Notes: generated from the letters alone by a model not told the origin. A stretch of 64,000 nt of DNA from Bacteroidota bacterium (GCA_021845665.1 JAJZVO010000021.1:1289-65288); one strand, 5' to 3'. Shown: positions 17,278-43,230, counted from the stretch's first letter. Numbers and translations: made by a program.

Positions 17278-17362
17278 GCCGAAGTGGTGGAACTTGGTAG
17301 ACACACTGTCTTGAGGGGGCAGGGCCCGAAAGGGCGTGCGGGTTCGAGTCCCGCCTTCGGCA
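17278..17362 (+). tRNA. tRNA-Leu, anticodon GAG, type II (long variable arm); CCA not encoded
   Basis: Hand-folded cloverleaf. Acceptor stem GCCGAAG/CTTCGGC. Anticodon stem CTGTC/GGCAG with loop TTGAGGG (U33, GAG, G37). Variable arm GCCC-GAAA-GGGC. T arm GCGGG-TTCGAGT-CCCGC. Discriminator A. Confidence 0.95.
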
Positions 17363-17387
17363 CTGTACAAGATCGGAAGTTAGATTG

Positions 17388-17422
17388 AAACGCCAGCATG
17401 ATCCGCTGGCGTTTCTGTTTTT
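17388..17422 (+). terminator. Rho-independent terminator after tRNA-Leu
   Basis: AAACGCCAGC (17388-17397), loop ATGATCC, GCTGGCGTTT (17405-17414), then CTGTTTTT. Confidence 0.8.
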
Positions 17423-17527
17423 CAGTTTGAGACCCCACCTCCATGAGTTGCCGCCGTGACCTGGATCATTTGACAAGTTTCCTTTGGGTGTGCACATTTA
17501 ACCGAACGTTGAGCTAAAGGAGAACCA

Positions 17528-18091
17528 ATGGGTACGGGACAGATGCTGCTTACGATTGGCGCAATGATGTTGCTGGGGACCATAATACTCACCACGAATC
17601 GTGGCATAGAAGACAGCACTCAAGTATTGCTCAATACCGGCTATGGAATCGATGCTGTGTCGCTTGCCACTTCCACTATCGAAAGAGCGAATGGACTGGC
17701 TTTTGATCAAAACACCAAAGATGATTCGACCGGGAAATTGATCTCGCTAAGTCAGTTGACTCCGCCTGCAAGTCTTGGGCAGGAGAACGGAGATTCCACG
17801 GACTTTGATGACTTTGATGATTTCAACGGCTTGCCCGGAGGACCGAACAGCTTCTATAACCAACTGGATACGCTTCGACTTCCGACCGACACAACAAAAA
17901 TTATTGGGATCTATGACATTAAGACTGAGGTCCATTACGTCTATCGGGATCCATCATCAGGTGACTTTGTGGAAGAGACATCTTCTGCGGATACGGCAAC
18001 CTGGAGCAAGGAACTTGATGTATGGGTTTGGAGCGTTACCACGCCGGACGATAGTGTTCATATGAGAGATATTTTTAGTTACTGGTATTAA
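17528..18091 (+). CDS. Pilin-like (PilV-position) protein with a single N-terminal hydrophobic helix and no canonical prepilin leader
   Basis: AAGGAG RBS 5 nt before the ATG and an in-frame TGA 7 codons upstream, so the start is firm. The N-terminus is MGTGQMLLTIGAMMLLGTIILTTNRG. First gene of a three-gene cluster with 10-12-nt spacers. Confidence 0.65.
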   Translation: MGTGQMLLTIGAMMLLGTIILTTNRGIEDSTQVLLNTGYGIDAVSLATSTIERANGLAFDQNTKDDSTGKLISLSQLTPPASLGQENGDSTDFDDFDDFNGLPGGPNSFYNQLDTLRLPTDTTKIIGIYDIKTEVHYVYRDPSSGDFVEETSSADTATWSKELDVWVWSVTTPDDSVHMRDIFSYWY

Positions 18092-18103
18092 TCGAGGTAA
18101 GCT

Positions 18104-18718
18104 ATGGGCACCACAACGATGCTCGACATACTTGGGTCAATGATAATTGGTGGCCTACTGCTGATTACTGCGCTGCAAATGAACGATACTGCAACGAACA
18201 ATAACTTCGTGACCCAGGAGGACCTGACAGTTCAACAGAATCTGACTTCATTGGTCGAGAACATTGAATACGATTTCAGAAAGATCGGTTATATCAAAGG
18301 CGGCTATCCTCCGCCGACTGACAAGTGCATCATATTCGGCGATAGCGACAGCATAGCGTTCCTGAGCGACATCGATAACGATGGAGAGCTCGACACTGTA
18401 ATATGGTACAAGGAGAATGGACCGATTGCAGGTTGTCCGAATCAGAACGCGAGAATGCTTGTTAGAGAAACGGTGACACCTGAAGGGGTGAGTGTTGATA
18501 GCGCAAACCTTGGTGTTACGGAATTCTCAATCCGATATTATGATGCCTTCGGTACTCAGATATGGCCTGAATATAAGCAAGGGAGTCCTGATCCACCTAA
18601 CCTGATGAAGCTCAACCTGATGGTGGAACCCACATCAGCTTATGACACATCATATTCAACTAATTTCGCGTTCTGGACACAGACGAGACTAGTATCAAAG
18701 AATTTGACGGCAAGATAA
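18104..18718 (+). CDS. PilW-like minor-pilin-like protein (non-canonical N-terminus)
   Basis: GAGGT RBS. The N-terminus MGTTTMLDILGSMIIGGLLLITAL is paralogous to the previous gene. The following block QEDLTVQQNLTSLVENIEYDFRKIGY resembles the PilW signature (.....dlr.AGy), from memory. Confidence 0.65.
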   Translation: MGTTTMLDILGSMIIGGLLLITALQMNDTATNNNFVTQEDLTVQQNLTSLVENIEYDFRKIGYIKGGYPPPTDKCIIFGDSDSIAFLSDIDNDGELDTVIWYKENGPIAGCPNQNARMLVRETVTPEGVSVDSANLGVTEFSIRYYDAFGTQIWPEYKQGSPDPPNLMKLNLMVEPTSAYDTSYSTNFAFWTQTRLVSKNLTAR

Positions 18719-18728
18719 GAGGTGTAAA

Positions 18729-20219
18729 ATGGTCGGAAGAGCTTCATTGATCGTAATACTTGGCTTCAGCGTGATTTTCGGAATGGCAAGCCTGTACTGG
18801 AACAGGGAAAGTGATAGCGCTACGAACAACATGGTAGATTATTACTCGGCATCGGCCGCGCACAATATCGCCGTCGGTGCAGCAAACTACGCGGTCTCTC
18901 TGATTTTCCAGAACACTGCGGACACTTCAGCAATTGATGGGATGTCAGGGCAATTCCCCGGAGGTGGTACATACGACATTACAGATCAAATGCTCGCCGG
19001 ACCTTACGGAACCAGAGACCCTTACATAACCACCACGGGATCTTTTACCGGGGGTGATGGCGTCCCGATAAATGATACCGTCAGAGTGCTCCTTTCAACG
19101 TACAAGTTTTCCAGCTTTGCTATGTTCGACAGCTCTGATGAAATGCAAAACGGTGCGCCCGTTTACTGGACCACTGGCGACACGTTGACTGGCCCGTTTC
19201 AGACGAATGGCAACATGTACGTACAGGGGGTTCCCGTCATCAAGGGCCCGGTCACAATCGGAGGTACGACGTATACAAACGATAATGGGCAGTCTGCTAC
19301 AGCAAACCCGACTAAGCTTCCAGACCCATACGGCGATACTCTCAAAGCAAACTCTTTCAGATCGGGTGTGGTTGTGCAGATGCCCCCGACGTTGAGCAGC
19401 TACAGAGGGGCGGCCAGCTCAAGCGCGACATTTACTCAGTCAAGCTATAGCGGGAGCAACTACGCCTACGATGTGTATTTGAATTTTAATTCTGGAGGGA
19501 CAGTATCGGAAACGGATACAACCCGCCAAATAGCAAGTACCAGCACCAGCTGGCAGTGGGTGAATGGGCAGGGTGGGCAGCAGGTTACAACAACGACCTG
19601 GTCCATTGTGGCAACGCACTCAAATCCCAATCTCTCTCTCTCTGCATTGGAAAACTCGTATGGACAAAGTGTGATTGTCGTTCAGAACGGGGATGTGAAT
19701 GTGTCGGGAGTGGTAAACGGAAATGTTACGGTGGTCGCGCTGCAGGGCAGTGGCGCATCCGGCAGATCGAGTTACGGCGGAAGTAACTCCGGAGGTCTCA
19801 TTAGCTCCAGTACCAACGGAAATGTTATGATAACCGGAGATATTACCTACAACGATAACCCTCAGACTAATCCGGCCAGTACCGATATGTTGGGGCTCGT
19901 AGCCTCGAATAATGTCATGCTGACGACGCAGCCAGAAGGCAACGTTACCATTGACGCCGCGATCTTCGCTCATCATGGATCCTTCATGTGTGAAGGATAT
20001 AATTCCACTACAGGCAACACCAGCAACGGTAATTATAATACGTTTGCCGGTTATCTAGATTTGTATGGGTCGCTTTCGCAGGATTACAGAGGACCCGTGG
20101 GGACGACCGGTGGAACAGGGTATTTGAAGGATTACAAATTCGATCCCCGTTTTGAAAAAGACTCTCCTCCTGCCTTTCCGGGTACAACCCGGTACAAAGT
20201 TGTATCGTGGGAAGAATAG
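18729..20219 (+). CDS. PilX-like protein with a large Gly/Thr/Asn-rich, probably beta-helical C-terminal domain
   Basis: The N-terminus GRASLIVILGFSVIFGMASL....SAAHNIAVGAANYAVSLIF resembles the PilX N-terminal domain. The C-terminal part has repeated NG(D/N)V.V.G segments, and the protein ends ...YKFDPRFEKDSPPAFPGTTRYKVVSWEE. Confidence 0.65.
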   Translation: MVGRASLIVILGFSVIFGMASLYWNRESDSATNNMVDYYSASAAHNIAVGAANYAVSLIFQNTADTSAIDGMSGQFPGGGTYDITDQMLAGPYGTRDPYITTTGSFTGGDGVPINDTVRVLLSTYKFSSFAMFDSSDEMQNGAPVYWTTGDTLTGPFQTNGNMYVQGVPVIKGPVTIGGTTYTNDNGQSATANPTKLPDPYGDTLKANSFRSGVVVQMPPTLSSYRGAASSSATFTQSSYSGSNYAYDVYLNFNSGGTVSETDTTRQIASTSTSWQWVNGQGGQQVTTTTWSIVATHSNPNLSLSALENSYGQSVIVVQNGDVNVSGVVNGNVTVVALQGSGASGRSSYGGSNSGGLISSSTNGNVMITGDITYNDNPQTNPASTDMLGLVASNNVMLTTQPEGNVTIDAAIFAHHGSFMCEGYNSTTGNTSNGNYNTFAGYLDLYGSLSQDYRGPVGTTGGTGYLKDYKFDPRFEKDSPPAFPGTTRYKVVSWEE

Positions 20220-20254
20220 ACGGCATCTCTTGTTTGTGAGATGCCGTGGTGTTT
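20220..20254 (+). terminator. Hairpin terminator after the pilin-like cluster
   Basis: ACGGCATCTC (20220-20229), loop TTGTTTGT, GAGATGCCGT (20238-20247). The tail GGTGTTTG is only a weak U tract. Confidence 0.55.
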
Positions 20255-20314: not shown

Positions 20315-20343
20315 TTGACAAATACAAAACGCTGACTTATAAT
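20315..20343 (+). promoter_or_regulatory. Consensus sigma-70 promoter
   Basis: TTGACA (20315-20320), exactly 17 nt, then TATAAT (20338-20343). This lies 28 nt upstream of ATG 20371, which has an AAAGGAG RBS. Confidence 0.6.
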
Positions 20344-20370: not shown

Positions 20371-20571
20371 ATGATGAGCGATGTTCAGAAAAGAATGCGA
20401 ATTGTCGAGACGTACAAGAAGCTTGAAAGCCTTAGAGGCACTGCGGAGAAGGTCGACGCGAACGTGAAGACAGTCAAGAAGTGGGTCGATCGGTTCGCAA
20501 AATACGGCAAGAAAGGGCTGGTCGACAAACGATTTAAGATGCCTGCTAAGAGCAAAGGAAAATCCAGATAG
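20371..20571 (+). CDS. Small stand-alone helix-turn-helix protein resembling the N-terminal HTH of IS630/IS481/IS3-type transposases
   Basis: 66 aa: MMSDVQKRMRIVETYKKLESLRGTAEKVDANVKTVKKWVDRFAKYGKKGLVDKRFKMPAKSKGKSR. The V.TV.KWV.RF...G..GL.DK pattern is typical of transposase HTH modules. No DDE domain follows. Confidence 0.6.
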   Translation: MMSDVQKRMRIVETYKKLESLRGTAEKVDANVKTVKKWVDRFAKYGKKGLVDKRFKMPAKSKGKSR

Positions 20572-39661: not shown

Positions 39662-41755
39662 ATGAAAAAGGGAGTGACGTACGCCATATTCGTGGCGCTT
39701 CTCCTTACCATGGCCGGATGTTCAAAATACAAAGTGGCGTCTTTCGTGATGCCGACCTGGAATATGCAGCTTTCCGCACCGATTTTCGACCGGACGTATA
39801 CACTTTTGCAGATGATTTCAAAGGATACGGTTCAGGTCTCAAATGGTGATACCACTTTCTTACTTCCAAATTCGCAGACCCAGGTTTTCACGCTTATTCG
39901 ATCTCAGAACTTGAACGGGGTGTCTGTTGGGAACAATCTGAAGATTGGCGCCGTGCCTCAGACAAACGTTGCCCAGAGCCCGAAAGATTTTTCGATCGCC
40001 AATCCTCCGTCCATCCACTATTCGGCGGTGAACCCGTCAATCGTGACCGGTTCGGTTCCGTTTGTCCCTGCGATTCCCAAGCAGACCCAAACGATTACCC
40101 CGGCGGACGCATTCACGAACTTCAAGACTGCTACACTTAGCACCGGAACATTGACGATTACGATTCACAACGGATATCCCGCTCCTATCATCTTTGAGAA
40201 CGGGCTCATCTACTTGGTCGATGCCTTTGGAGGATACATACACATATCTGTCCCGAAGGATTCTATACTGGGAAACCAGACAGTCACCCTTCCGGCTGTT
40301 TCTCTGGCGGGCCGTACTCTTTCTGATCAGCCTACTGTTACATTTACTGATAGCTCCAATGGGTCATCGTCGGCTGCGACGATACAATCCGATACTACTA
40401 TATCATTTTCCGCTTCTTTGGCGAATGTCCATGTGTCGTCTGCAAACGCCATAGTACCTCCACAGCCTGATATTGTCATCGACTCCAGCATCGTAATACA
40501 GGATGGCAACAAAGTTCAGACCGCATCCATCGACACCGGAAGCGTCAGTCTGACGGTAAGAAACAATTATAACATAAGCATTCCGGTCAGTCTCAGCATC
40601 CCGGGACTTACCAAAAGCGGAGTATCTCTGACACGGAACTTCACGTTGTCTCCGAAGGGGACGTCGGGGAGTGTATACGCTACTCCGATTTCTCTCAACG
40701 GCTACACTTTAAACATGGCCGACCCTTCGACGGGAGCACCTTCAGATTCTCTGAAATACAGTGTCACCGCACAGATACCTGGGTCAAATGGGAGTTACGT
40801 TGGTATCTCAACTACCGATTCCATCACCGCTTCGTTCCAGCTGACCGGGCTTCAACTTTCGTCTTTCTCCGGCGAGGTACATCTCGCGAATGCTATCAAT
40901 ATCGCTCCCGACACTCAGAAGGTGGATCTGGGGTCGTTTGCATCGAAGTTCAACGGTGCGATCCTCTTCGGACCTGGAACAACACTACAGATGAGAATTA
41001 ACAGCATAGGCTTCCCATGTGAGGCGCACATCTCGCTAATACCTACGAGTAGCGAATACCTTTCGCTTCCCCCGGTGGATTCAGCCGTCGTGGACACAAC
41101 TATCTATCCCAACCGCACTAACGTGATAACGCTTGGTCAGAGTTTCGTTAAAGCTCTTAATGCATTCTCCGAAGCTCACAGGACTATTCCCGACAGGTTC
41201 ATAATCAGCGGATACGTGCTTGTGAACCCGGGAGGTACCGCAATAGGATCGGTTAAGAGCACAGACATGGTCACGGGGAGCGGAACTATAACGATGCCGT
41301 TAGATCTCGGAATCATTAACGCTCAGTACGCTGATACAACCAAGACTGCCGTCATAACCGATTCCAGTACATCCGCGAAGCTCGCCAATGTCGATAGCGG
41401 TAACGTCGTCATTGAAGTATGGAACGGTCTGCCTCTGCAGGTTACCATGATGGGCCAGCTGATCGACACGACCACTCACGCCGTCCTCATGAATTTTCCG
41501 AGTGACAGCATCTACATCCCGGCGGCTCAGATCAACCCGGACGGGAGTGTAAAGGACTCGGTGTTCAGCAAGAACATAGTTTCGCTGACGGCGACGCAGG
41601 CAAGGAATCTCGGGAACAGTTACATGAGATTCTTCTTCAGAGTTGTGACGCCACCCGGGGCGACCACCGTCCCGTTCATGAAGGATAACGATATTTCCTT
41701 GAGGGTTTACGGCAATTTTGCCCTTAAGGTTGACAAAAGTCTGACCGGAAAGTGA
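39662..41755 (+). CDS. Large lipoprotein of unknown function (repeated beta-sandwich-like modules)
   Basis: GAAGGAG RBS and a lipobox LLLTMAGC. Ser/Thr/Asn-rich. A strand pattern recurs: TLTITIHNGYPAPIIF, VSLTVRNNYNISIPVSL, VVIEVWNGLPLQVTM. Confidence 0.6.
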   Translation: MKKGVTYAIFVALLLTMAGCSKYKVASFVMPTWNMQLSAPIFDRTYTLLQMISKDTVQVSNGDTTFLLPNSQTQVFTLIRSQNLNGVSVGNNLKIGAVPQTNVAQSPKDFSIANPPSIHYSAVNPSIVTGSVPFVPAIPKQTQTITPADAFTNFKTATLSTGTLTITIHNGYPAPIIFENGLIYLVDAFGGYIHISVPKDSILGNQTVTLPAVSLAGRTLSDQPTVTFTDSSNGSSSAATIQSDTTISFSASLANVHVSSANAIVPPQPDIVIDSSIVIQDGNKVQTASIDTGSVSLTVRNNYNISIPVSLSIPGLTKSGVSLTRNFTLSPKGTSGSVYATPISLNGYTLNMADPSTGAPSDSLKYSVTAQIPGSNGSYVGISTTDSITASFQLTGLQLSSFSGEVHLANAINIAPDTQKVDLGSFASKFNGAILFGPGTTLQMRINSIGFPCEAHISLIPTSSEYLSLPPVDSAVVDTTIYPNRTNVITLGQSFVKALNAFSEAHRTIPDRFIISGYVLVNPGGTAIGSVKSTDMVTGSGTITMPLDLGIINAQYADTTKTAVITDSSTSAKLANVDSGNVVIEVWNGLPLQVTMMGQLIDTTTHAVLMNFPSDSIYIPAAQINPDGSVKDSVFSKNIVSLTATQARNLGNSYMRFFFRVVTPPGATTVPFMKDNDISLRVYGNFALKVDKSLTGK

Positions 41756-41766
41756 GGAGAGGGAAA

Positions 41767-43230
41767 ATGAAGAGAATATTAGTCCTTGCAGCCCTTTTCC
41801 TCGCTCCGTTGTTCAGCGTTCGCGCGCAACAGATCGCAAGCAGCAGGCTGATCTCGATGGGCGGAGTCTCCACGGCAGTATCATCCAACGTAGATGCCAT
41901 AGGTACGAATCCCGCGAATTTGATCGCGACTTCTCGCGGCAATGTCGTCGTTGAACTGGCGCCGATCAGTCTGAGGGCAGGAACAGATTTTTTGAGCCTG
42001 AACCTGTACAACAACTACTTTACCGGCACCGGTCAGGTGGACAGCGCCGGGAACAAGATCGGGAAGTACCTCACAGCCGCGGATAAGCAGAGCATACTCG
42101 ATGCATTCCCCGGTGGCATAGGGACGGTGCTGACCGACGTCAGCATCCGTGATTTAGGCCTTTCGGTTAGGAATAACGATTTCGCCCTCGGTTTTGCCAT
42201 CGACGATCACGTCGGTGCCCGCGCTACTGTGCCGAACTCTTTCGTGATGTTTGCTCTTGACGGGAATGCTCCGGGATCGAACTTCTCGTGGGACAACATC
42301 AGCTCGAAGGCGTGGTGGTACAGGAGCTACAACGCCGATTTTGCGATTAGACTGCCCAATCCAGTTATAATTCCGAAAGATATCGCAAACGGTTTCAGCG
42401 CGGGCATCGGGGTCAAATACGTCACCGGCCTTGCTTATGCTTCGGCGCAGACGAACAACAGTTATCTGCAGACCGACTCCGCAAACTATGCTTTCAACGT
42501 AGGCTTAGGATTCAGCGGACAGCGCGCCGGCATATTGAGCAACGCGATTTCGAAGGCGATGAAGAGCAGCGTCGGCGATACCACGACGAACGTGAATCCG
42601 TTCTCTCCCGCAGGTTCGGGATTCGGTTTCGATCTCGGAGGGACGGCAAGAGTTCTCGGCTTCATCAAGGTCGGCATGAGCTTGACTGACATCGGAGCTA
42701 TTTCGTGGACGAAGAACACTATCAGCACGTCCGGAGATACATCTTTCACGTTCAATGGATTTTCACCGGCCGAAACCGGCGTCCCGAACGCGACGAGTAA
42801 CCTCGACAGCCTGAACAATGCTTTCAAGAATTTCTTCAAGAACAGGGATTCATTGTCATCGGGCTTCACTACACCGCTCCCGACCAGGTTTAACCTGGGT
42901 GCGTCAGTGAACATGGATGAGGTGTTCCCCTCGATTCCGGGCCAACTCCTTCTCGCAGTTGACTATCACCAGGGACTCAACAATTCTCTCGGTAATTCCA
43001 CGGTTCCTGAAATCGACCTCGGGGCGGAGTGGAAGCCCATAGGTGTGCTTCCGATAAGGACGGGCCTTGGATTTGGAGGTGCGTATGGTTTCAGATGGGC
43101 ATTGGGCATCGGCATCGACATGCCATTTTGGGATATCGATCTTGGCGTCGGAACATTCAACGATTTGGTTGCGCCAACCAGTGCCAAGAACCTGTCTGTG
43201 ACGTTAAGTTTTCTCAAGTTCAGATTCTGA
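41767..43230 (+). CDS. Outer-membrane beta-barrel protein (PorV/PorQ/DUF5723-like N-terminal motif)
   Basis: Start at ATG 41767, giving the signal peptide MKRILVLAALFLAPLFSVRAQQ. The motif MGGVSTAVSSNVDAIGTNPANL, alternating beta-strand patterns and a C-terminal ...LSFLKFRF ending in Phe are all typical of OMPs. Confidence 0.6.
   Translation: MKRILVLAALFLAPLFSVRAQQIASSRLISMGGVSTAVSSNVDAIGTNPANLIATSRGNVVVELAPISLRAGTDFLSLNLYNNYFTGTGQVDSAGNKIGKYLTAADKQSILDAFPGGIGTVLTDVSIRDLGLSVRNNDFALGFAIDDHVGARATVPNSFVMFALDGNAPGSNFSWDNISSKAWWYRSYNADFAIRLPNPVIIPKDIANGFSAGIGVKYVTGLAYASAQTNNSYLQTDSANYAFNVGLGFSGQRAGILSNAISKAMKSSVGDTTTNVNPFSPAGSGFGFDLGGTARVLGFIKVGMSLTDIGAISWTKNTISTSGDTSFTFNGFSPAETGVPNATSNLDSLNNAFKNFFKNRDSLSSGFTTPLPTRFNLGASVNMDEVFPSIPGQLLLAVDYHQGLNNSLGNSTVPEIDLGAEWKPIGVLPIRTGLGFGGAYGFRWALGIGIDMPFWDIDLGVGTFNDLVAPTSAKNLSVTLSFLKFRF

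Follow-up and report, generated by a model that had tools for sequence, protein, structure and literature searches.

A predicted minor-pilin operon with leaderless subunits adjacent to a tRNA-Leu gene in a Bacteroidota genome

Introduction

To our knowledge, every characterised type IV filament, including type IVa and type IVb pili (T4aP and T4bP), Tad pili, type II secretion systems (T2SS), Com, archaeal pili and archaella, depends on a class III leader. This leader is removed by a dedicated aspartic peptidase, after which a contact between Glu5 and the N-terminus neutralises charge in the filament core. Stand-alone minor-pilin operons are usual in canonical T4aP, examples being the fimU-pilVWXY1E operon of Pseudomonas aeruginosa, which encodes FimU, PilV, PilW, PilX, PilY1 and PilE, and the three minor-pilin/PilY1 clusters of Myxococcus xanthus. 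The present study concerns three consecutive genes, here called g1, g2 and g3 and together the trio, in a 64,000-nucleotide stretch of a Bacteroidota genome (GCA_021845665.1, JAJZVO010000021.1:1289-65288), the whole of which is referred to as the window. We propose that g1-g2-g3 is a stand-alone minor-pilin operon, with a priming or tip role, of a lineage-specific type IVa-pilus-like machine whose subunits are leaderless and most likely uncleaved, a reading to which we assign a probability of roughly 0.75. Judging from homologous sequences, the machine would occur in Ignavibacteriota, Ca. Kryptoniota and related bacteria of the Fibrobacteres-Chlorobi-Bacteroidetes (FCB) superphylum.

The trio resembles the GspI-GspJ-GspK (EpsI/J/K) tip of the T2SS in being three consecutive genes of rising size, in the predicted EpsJ-like fold of g2, in a last and largest subunit without a conserved acidic residue, and in having one N-terminal hydrophobic helix per protein. 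It differs from GspIJK in lacking class III leaders, Pfam T2SSI/J/K matches and an evident GspH-like fourth gene, in a g3 protein with a large beta-rich domain and no GspK-like fold match, and in its link to a machine that has PilT and is T4aP-like. With the operons of Pseudomonas and Myxococcus it shares a stand-alone position away from pilBCD and pilMNOPQ, a presumed priming/tip role, several paralogous sets per genome and a large terminal adhesin-like component, but it comprises only three genes, with no separate PilY1, no leader peptides and Gln5 for Glu5. Here, g3 may combine the roles of PilX and PilY1.

Within the FCB superphylum, the T4aP-derived 'T2SS' of Cytophaga hutchinsonii (CHU_3191-3201) is comparable in that its pilins and platform proteins are so divergent that they escape standard hidden Markov models (HMMs). 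The Cytophaga-type machine branches with T4aP (PMC6668835), and its cluster encodes the A24 prepilin peptidase CHU_3197 and pseudopilins recognised by a canonical N-terminal helix (PMC5553014), whereas the Ignavibacteria-type clusters described below have no peptidase gene and their subunits are leaderless. The genome paper of Melioribacter roseus reported pilT, pilQ, pilB and pilC but not pilA or pilD (PMC3534657). Pili are not mentioned in the I. album genome paper, and our literature search found no paper describing the present families or leaderless pilins, the term 'DUF4900' returning one unrelated paper.

Results and discussion

Some orthologous trios lie within a type IVa-like pilus cluster

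Locus L089, situated on an 845-kb contig, and locus L090 carry the trio in a single co-directional cluster, in the order sigma54 response regulator, CheW, g1-g2-g3, a 134-amino-acid (aa) protein beginning MGQQQ, PilC (T2SSF), PilB (T2SSE) and a PilT-family ATPase, and ending with a 506-aa PilM/N-like protein, a 296-aa protein and a secretin. The PilT-family ATPase scores 321.7 bits against an NCBIfam cut-off of 319.1. Trio and machinery are likewise linked in L008, L067 and L081. The 134-aa protein, which starts MGQQQLLLI(V/I)LGVI, is a candidate major pilin with at least 473 relatives in metagenomes, and in 82 loci anchored on it the pilin gene lies directly upstream of PilC-PilB-PilT-PilMN-PilOP-PilQ. 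In 17 of these 82 loci the pilus cluster contains the trio, which precedes the pilin or separates PilB from PilT. Genetic association with an assembly ATPase, a platform protein and a secretin is therefore observed through orthologous trios, at loci outside this window, and the position of the trio inside the pilus clusters of relatives identifies it as a component of a type IVa-like system. These findings bear out an initial annotation of the window, made from the sequence alone, which had suggested a priming or tip module for a pilus encoded elsewhere and had called for a search for homologous trios beside type IV pilus (T4P) genes in other genomes. By comparison with relatives that keep the trio in the cluster, the rest of the machine would be encoded elsewhere in the present genome.

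The CheW-domain protein and the sigma54-dependent response regulator stand immediately upstream of the trio heading the cluster in L089 (8855-9343 and 7335-8735, respectively) as well as in L067, L081, L099 and L100. The secretin of the cluster is short compared with a typical PilQ, at about 410-425 aa (L089 20017-20675; L153 17436-18684).

A scan of one genome per species recovered 429 relatives of g2, with hosts comprising Ignavibacteria, Melioribacteraceae, Ignavibacteriaceae, Ca. Kryptoniota and unclassified 'Bacteroidetes' metagenome-assembled genomes (MAGs). The gene order g1-g2-g3 with minimal spacing was seen in all 79 genome loci, so that the pilV-pilW-pilX-like (or I/J/K-like) order noted earlier for the window is invariant. 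Some genomes carry two or three tandem trios or extra copies of g3.

Trios are often near large surface proteins, and the stand-alone trios of Ignavibacteriaceae often adjoin two-component regulator genes, either before or after them. Such genes lie about 100 nt after g3 in L047, L051, L054, L062, L063, L075, L078 and L080, and also occur in L005 (6341-8421); the phmmer query behind this observation was unspecific for receiver and AAA+ domains. The arrangement hints at separately regulated alternative tip modules. In several long-read MAGs, g3 or the pilin is split or truncated by apparent frameshifts (L067 10686-12036 and 12264-12482; L068; L090 12204-12350), which are probably assembly errors and not pseudogenes.

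Subunit families begin without a class III leader

Consensus N-termini are M-G-Q-Q-Q-L-L-L-I for the candidate pilin, M-(G/N)-T-G-(Q, rarely E)-M-L-L-T-I-G-A for g1, M-G-(F/S/T)-(S/T)-T-L-(L/I)-D-I-L-G-S for g2 and M-(V/G/A)-G-(K/R)-A-(S/T)-L-(L/I)-V-I-L-G-F for g3, some of these positions, partly in g3 and the pilin, having been fixed by the patterns used for selection. The longest possible open reading frame (ORF) begins exactly at the family N-terminus in 114 of 121 pilins, which leaves no room for a leader, and the same holds for 104 of 119 g2, 78 of 121 g1 and 89 of 131 g3 sequences. No motif of the G↓FTLIE type (↓, cleavage site) was present among about 490 family ORFs. In a 50%-identity library built from independent gene calls, the alignment to the g1 profile starts at residue 1 for nearly all of the 150 best representatives. 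In the window itself, an in-frame TGA at 17510-17512, 15 nt before the g1 start, excludes a longer g1 and with it a longer leader, as had been noticed from the sequence. The consensus N-termini and ORF starts extend the observation of a missing class III signal from the window to whole families, and conservation across hundreds of homologs rules out start-calling errors, which had been named as a way in which the leaderless N-termini might be refuted.

Counting from Met1, Gln takes the place of the Glu5 of mature type IV pilins, a residue from which GspK/PilX-type caps are exempt. It occupies position 5 in all 112 pilins and in 70 of 74 g1 orthologs, the other four having Glu, the residue also found in the syntenic ortholog. 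The acidic position of g2 is Asp8, and g3 has none. The subunits therefore appear, from their sequences, to be pilins translated in the 'mature' form, with Met1 and Gln5 instead of Phe1 and Glu5.

Complete pilus clusters leave no room between genes for a peptidase gene. Regular-expression scans covered 11,407 ORFs from 170 loci plus the window, spanning approximately ±10 kb around trios or pilins. No ORF in this set matched the A24 motif GxGDxKL, a weak test, and a canonical class III motif gave one spurious match only. Furthermore, position 2 of g1 is Asn and not Gly in 29 of 74 orthologs, where a Gly(-1)-dependent peptidase could not cut. All four subunit families start with a hydrophobic segment and are most likely inserted and assembled without prepilin peptidase cleavage. 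The leader is absent; absence of processing is the most likely consequence. The broader proposal, in which leaderless subunits make up a type IVa pilus in Ignavibacteriota, Kryptoniota and their relatives, no prepilin peptidase is needed and the trio serves as the priming/tip module, is tentative, and we give it somewhat less than an even chance.

Minor pilins are an ordinary functional category, and it is the leaderless design of the whole system that would surprise specialists if non-processing were confirmed. The system would then be the first among type IV filaments to lack the class III signal and peptidase step that define the superfamily, implying that the peptidase step is dispensable and providing a natural test of the roles of the leader and Glu5 in membrane insertion, control of premature assembly and core packing. 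[quoted passage not shown] Three large families of hypothetical proteins, DUF4900 among them, would gain a function, in a lineage that is widespread and environmentally abundant, as indicated by the metagenomic pilin relatives and by the 1583 clusters of g1 at 50% identity.

Predicted structure and family relationships of the three subunits

The g2 gene (18104-18718, plus strand, 204 aa) encodes a predicted GspJ/EpsJ-like minor pilin with the N-terminus MGTTTMLDILGS and an invariant Asp8. Its AlphaFold2 model (pLDDT 82.8) has a 57-residue helix (residues 3-59) followed by a beta sheet, the pilin "lollipop". In a Foldseek search of the PDB, ranks 1 to 6 were all EpsJ chains of the EpsI:EpsJ complexes 2RET and 3CFI (probability 1.00, E-values 1.2e-3 to 3.5e-3, target-normalised TM-scores 0.53-0.60), followed by a Thermus type IV-like pilin; the model is thus consistent with a GspJ fold, at modest strength. 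Sequence models for T2SSJ and PilW did not recognise the family, none of 31 g2 homologs having a Pfam match, although some g2 homologs carry a precomputed PF27121 assignment. The only library match of g2 aligned its N-terminal helix to the NCBIfam model PpdB (prepilin-peptidase-dependent protein) at 15.9 bits against a cut-off of 120, and PDB sequence searches with the single protein and with a profile returned nothing. A DxDxDG..D loop at residues 87-97 is near-invariant. This loop, FLSDIDNDGELDTV (window 18359-18400, residues 86-99), aligns weakly to dockerin-type Ca2+ loops and, speculatively, may bind Ca2+.

The product of g3 (18729-20219, plus strand, 496 aa) would be a large minor pilin of the cap or adhesin type. 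Its N-terminus, MVGRASLIVILGFS, has Gly3, Arg or Lys at position 4 and no acidic residue, and the protein is made up of a PilX-like helix, a DUF4900 region and a large beta-rich domain, with a conserved C-terminal motif GYLKxYxYDxRF..PPxFP. The AlphaFold2 model (pLDDT 83.9, pTM 0.79) shows a helix at residues 2-62 and a four-stranded sheet (strands 72-126), beyond which about 370 residues are beta-rich to the C-terminal end. Taken together, the models suggest that g2 and the N-terminal part of g3 have the lollipop arrangement of helix and antiparallel sheet. The pilin-like nature ascribed to the trio from the sequence thus gains support from the EpsJ-like model of g2 and from the long helix, the sheet and the leader-bearing, PilX-annotated distant homologs of g3. 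As for the beta-helical domain thought probable in g3, the model is indeed beta-rich, but beyond that there are only weak matches to the FapA solenoid in three homologs.

Against DUF4900 (PF16241), g3 scores 25.7 bits with a gathering threshold of 29.4 (E-value 1.5e-5), and 19 of 26 g3 homologs match the model (best E-value 1.7e-7). PDB sequence searches with g3, both single and profile, were negative. PilX_N is matched by one of 26 homologs (E-value 0.03) and there is no GspK fold match, so that the likeness of g3 to GspK/PilX is limited to its being the last gene and largest subunit, its lack of an acidic residue and its distant homologs. The latter are DUF4900 proteins, named PilX by JGI, with a leader of the form MxxxRQNKG↓FALI, for example MINIRQNKG↓FALIFSL. 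One of them belongs to a four-gene DUF4900 module in locus L009, where it is homologous to g3 over approximately 75-80% of the length of g3, shares the GDxxxGPxxTNG region and a C-terminal YDxRL..PP motif, and also stands third, after two small pilin-like genes. The leaders of that module are canonical (MDRFSNKEGG↓FTIAEVL, MNNKA↓FNLVEMM and MINIRQNKG↓FALIF), in contrast to the leaderless trio, and no relationship of its two small proteins to g1 or g2 could be detected. A divergent module in L007 (2315-5694, minus strand) encodes proteins of 161, 190, 372 and 368 aa, two of them g3-like with a different C-terminal domain, and has on one side a response regulator/histidine kinase pair and on the other a 1885-aa adhesin that bears a type IX secretion system (T9SS) sorting tail.

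The g1 gene (17528-18091, plus strand, 187 aa) encodes a small, putatively minor-pilin-like subunit with the N-terminus MGTGQMLLTIGAMMLLG, in which Gln is at position 5. Nearly all of the 1583 representatives of its family at 50% identity begin at profile position 1. Pfam and NCBIfam gave no match for g1, and PDB sequence searches with the single protein and with its profile were negative. An acidic motif, FDDFDDFNG (window 17804-17830, residues 93-101), is invariant in the alignment and may bind metal, Ca2+ being a speculative ligand.

The tRNA-Leu site is ancestral

The trio follows a tRNA-Leu gene with anticodon GAG, predicted by ARAGORN at 17278-17363 on the plus strand. Locus L004 has the same order as the window, namely pnp, tRNA-Leu(GAG), g1-g2-g3, a small helix-turn-helix (HTH) gene, yicC, gmk, rpoZ and coaBC. 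Its flanking proteins are 63-86% identical to those of the window and its trio proteins 46-64% identical, in a genome with a GC content of 45%. The arrangement tRNA-trio-HTH-yicC was found in at least nine species-level genomes, including Ca. Kryptoniota MAGs, with trio proteins 46-71% identical. The full arrangement, with the tRNA wherever the contig extends far enough, also occurs in L011, L015, L016, L021, L022 and L027, all of which, like L004, have the same tRNA-Leu between pnp and g1, and partial versions were seen in L010, L013 and L014. The position of the trio after tRNA-Leu is therefore ancestral in the clade and does not reflect a recent insertion, and the tRNA is not an integration scar. 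Horizontal acquisition at the tRNA, proposed in the initial annotation, is contradicted by the conservation of pnp-tRNA-trio-HTH-yicC-gmk among genomes with 63-86% identical flanks. The same annotation had found no repeat of the tRNA 3' end; a search of the whole window agrees, returning nothing even with three mismatches allowed, and no integrase was found in the window. A tRNA-associated genomic island was accordingly rejected, there being neither integrase nor repeat and the same site being occupied in at least nine related species. The sole island-like feature of the trio is a dip in composition; the dip in GC content at third codon positions (GC3) recurs in L004, a genome of different overall GC, which makes it a property of the trio genes and not evidence that they were imported recently.

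The small HTH protein (66 aa; 20371-20571, plus strand; HTH_28 at 4e-8) had been taken for a transposase-type remnant. It aligns weakly to the N-terminal HTH models of IS481/IS630 (26.4 bits against a cut-off of 224), only the HTH part being present. Orthologs of 62-67 aa lie between g3 and yicC in L004, L010-L016, L021, L022 and L027, and the gene in the window has a perfect sigma-70 promoter (TTGACA-17-TATAAT; 20315-20343, plus strand; 12 of 12 consensus matches). An origin as an IS481/IS630 transposase relic was rejected on the grounds of this consensus promoter, the length of 62-67 aa kept in at least ten genomes and the restriction of the match to the HTH. The protein could regulate the trio or yicC, a functional link that is putative.

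Points against the proposed role and alternative explanations

Several observations weigh against the reading of g1-g2-g3 as a minor-pilin operon of leaderless subunits. No T4P or T2SS machinery gene was detected by Pfam in the whole 64-kb window, as the initial annotation had remarked for the neighbourhood of the trio, which means that this copy is connected to a pilus machine by homology only. Stand-alone trios are the commoner kind, machinery being present within 10 kb in only three of about 80 trio-anchored genome loci. Searches of Pfam, NCBIfam and PDB sequences gave nothing for the candidate major pilin, the Foldseek E-values of g2 are modest (about 1e-3), and the g3 model had no match in the PDB below E=1. 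The putative assignment of g1 as minor-pilin-like draws on its size, gene position and N-terminus, and profile comparisons of g1 with g2 and with the pilin, and of both g1 and g2 with the leader-bearing L009 proteins, were all insignificant; these comparisons aligned N-terminal helices only, yet in a register in which Met1 corresponds to +1 and Gln5 to Glu5. Furthermore, a minimal cleavage site could be provided by the Gly at position 2 or 3 in the pilin, g2 and g3, the start seen most often in g2, MG↓FSTLID, resembles a vestigial G↓FTLIE, and one Ignavibacteriales MAG has been reported to carry a canonical Geobacter-type PilA (PMC7399161).

The last three points speak for an alternative in which the module is the same but its subunits undergo processing, with a divergent peptidase encoded elsewhere removing a leader of minimal length (MG↓ for the pilin, g1 and g2; MVG↓ for g3), in which case the system would be canonical save for leader length. 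An invariant Gly occupies position 2 in the pilin (112/112) and in g2 (87/87) and position 3 in g3, with the caveat that the pattern used for selection partly determined the positions in g3 and the pilin; a canonical PilA implies a peptidase in that one genome; and related Bacteroidetes T2SS-like clusters encode an A24 peptidase (PMC5553014). However, Gly2 is replaced by Asn, Thr or Ser in half of the g1 orthologs, short variants of g2 lack the Gly and begin MSVILD or MQVVYD, and the Gln or Glu of g1 and the Gln of the pilin stand exactly at position 5 from Met1. No complete cluster has a peptidase gene, none of the ORFs of the 170 loci has GxGDxKL (subject to the weakness of that motif), and pilD was reported missing in M. 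roseus (PMC3534657). We consider short-leader processing unlikely, if worth keeping in mind. Our doubts are greater for the possibility that the trio tips a short, T2SS-like secretion pseudopilus, as proposed for the T4aP-derived Bacteroidetes 'T2SS'. The closest fold to g2 is that of the T2SS pseudopilin EpsJ, a three-member set in I-J-K-like order matches the T2SS tip complex, large surface proteins are often nearby, and very divergent pilins are a feature of the T2SS-like systems of Bacteroidetes, which branch with T4aP (PMC6668835, PMC5553014). On the other hand, the cluster possesses a PilT-family retraction ATPase scoring above its cut-off, CheW and a sigma54 regulator, which are typical of T4aP and not of T2SS, and exchangeable adhesive tips would be in keeping with the large domain of g3 and with the multiple paralogous trios.

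As an alternative for the window, a surface or adhesin complex had been suggested that is anchored in the membrane and reuses the pilin fold autonomously, without a pilus machine. It would account for the distance of most trios, including this one, from machinery genes, for the several copies per genome and for the unmatched fold of the large g3 domain. Yet the three families are embedded in the pilus cluster at a minimum of 17 independent loci and in two positions, the trio shares the N-terminal design of the candidate major pilin, and stand-alone minor-pilin operons are normal for canonical T4aP; independence from a pilus machine is, given this linkage, highly improbable. Least credible is the recent acquisition of a genomic islet by insertion at the tRNA-Leu 3' end, the HTH gene being a transposase relic. 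The tRNA-adjacent position, the lower GC and GC3 of g1 and g2 and the weak IS481/IS630 match speak for such an event, but they are outweighed by the synteny in at least nine species, the GC3 dip in the ortholog, the lack of an integrase or direct repeat, and the full-length HTH gene with its promoter, and we give it next to no weight.

If g1-g2-g3 is a priming/tip operon of leaderless minor pilins, as we favour, the N-terminal helices would, by analogy with GspI-J-K and FimU/PilVWX, hold the three proteins in the inner membrane, and the proteins would form a small staggered complex on the PilC/PilMN platform in the manner of GspIJK and FimU/PilVWX-PilY1. Extending these analogies, the complex would nucleate polymerisation of the MGQQQ major pilin and then stay at the pilus tip. 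As the large, last-encoded subunit without an acidic residue, g3 would cap the fibre, with the beta-rich domain exposed as its adhesive or variable portion, and several trios per genome would amount to alternative tips. More speculatively, Asp8 of g2 and Lys/Arg4 of g3 may replace the Glu5-N-terminus contact inside the tip complex.

Gene layout and composition of the locus

The initial annotation's account of the locus, as three tight genes between two terminators, each with a Shine-Dalgarno (SD)-like site and each encoding one N-terminal hydrophobic helix, holds in every detail. The intergenic gaps are 12 nt between g1 and g2 and 10 nt between g2 and g3, and the SD-like sites are AAAGGAG (17516-17522) for g1, GAGGT (18094-18098) for g2 and GAGGT (18719-18723) for g3. 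The sequence blocks quoted for g2 (IEYDFRKIGY) and g3 (SAAHNIAVGAANYAV) were found in the translations. A terminator-like hairpin at 17387-17415 (plus strand; 11-bp stem with seven GC pairs), with the T-run tail TGTTTTTCAG, ends the tRNA transcription unit, and a second at 20220-20247 (plus strand; 10-bp stem with six GC pairs) ends the three-gene operon. A sigma54 promoter was searched for upstream of g1 because the pilus clusters carry a sigma54 regulator; there was no match between the tRNA and g1, matches across the window being at chance level, and no sigma70-like site was found in the same interval. Housekeeping genes (nusA-infB-rbfA-truB-ribF-rpsO-pnp) precede the trio in the window, and yicC-gmk-rpoZ-coaBC and other housekeeping or metabolic genes follow it. 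At 39662-43230, a 697-aa protein without a Pfam match is followed by a DUF5723 protein, both uncharacterised and with no relation to the trio.

The impression that the module is more AT-rich than its flanks is correct in direction, although the difference is modest in size and slight for g3. GC and GC3 are 0.470 and 0.495 for g1, 0.460 and 0.512 for g2, and 0.508 and 0.553 for g3, the last only slightly below other genes, compared with means of 0.516 ± 0.021 and 0.616 ± 0.034 for the 36 other genes of the window. The deviations of g1 and g2 in GC and GC3 correspond to z-scores of -2.3 to -3.6.

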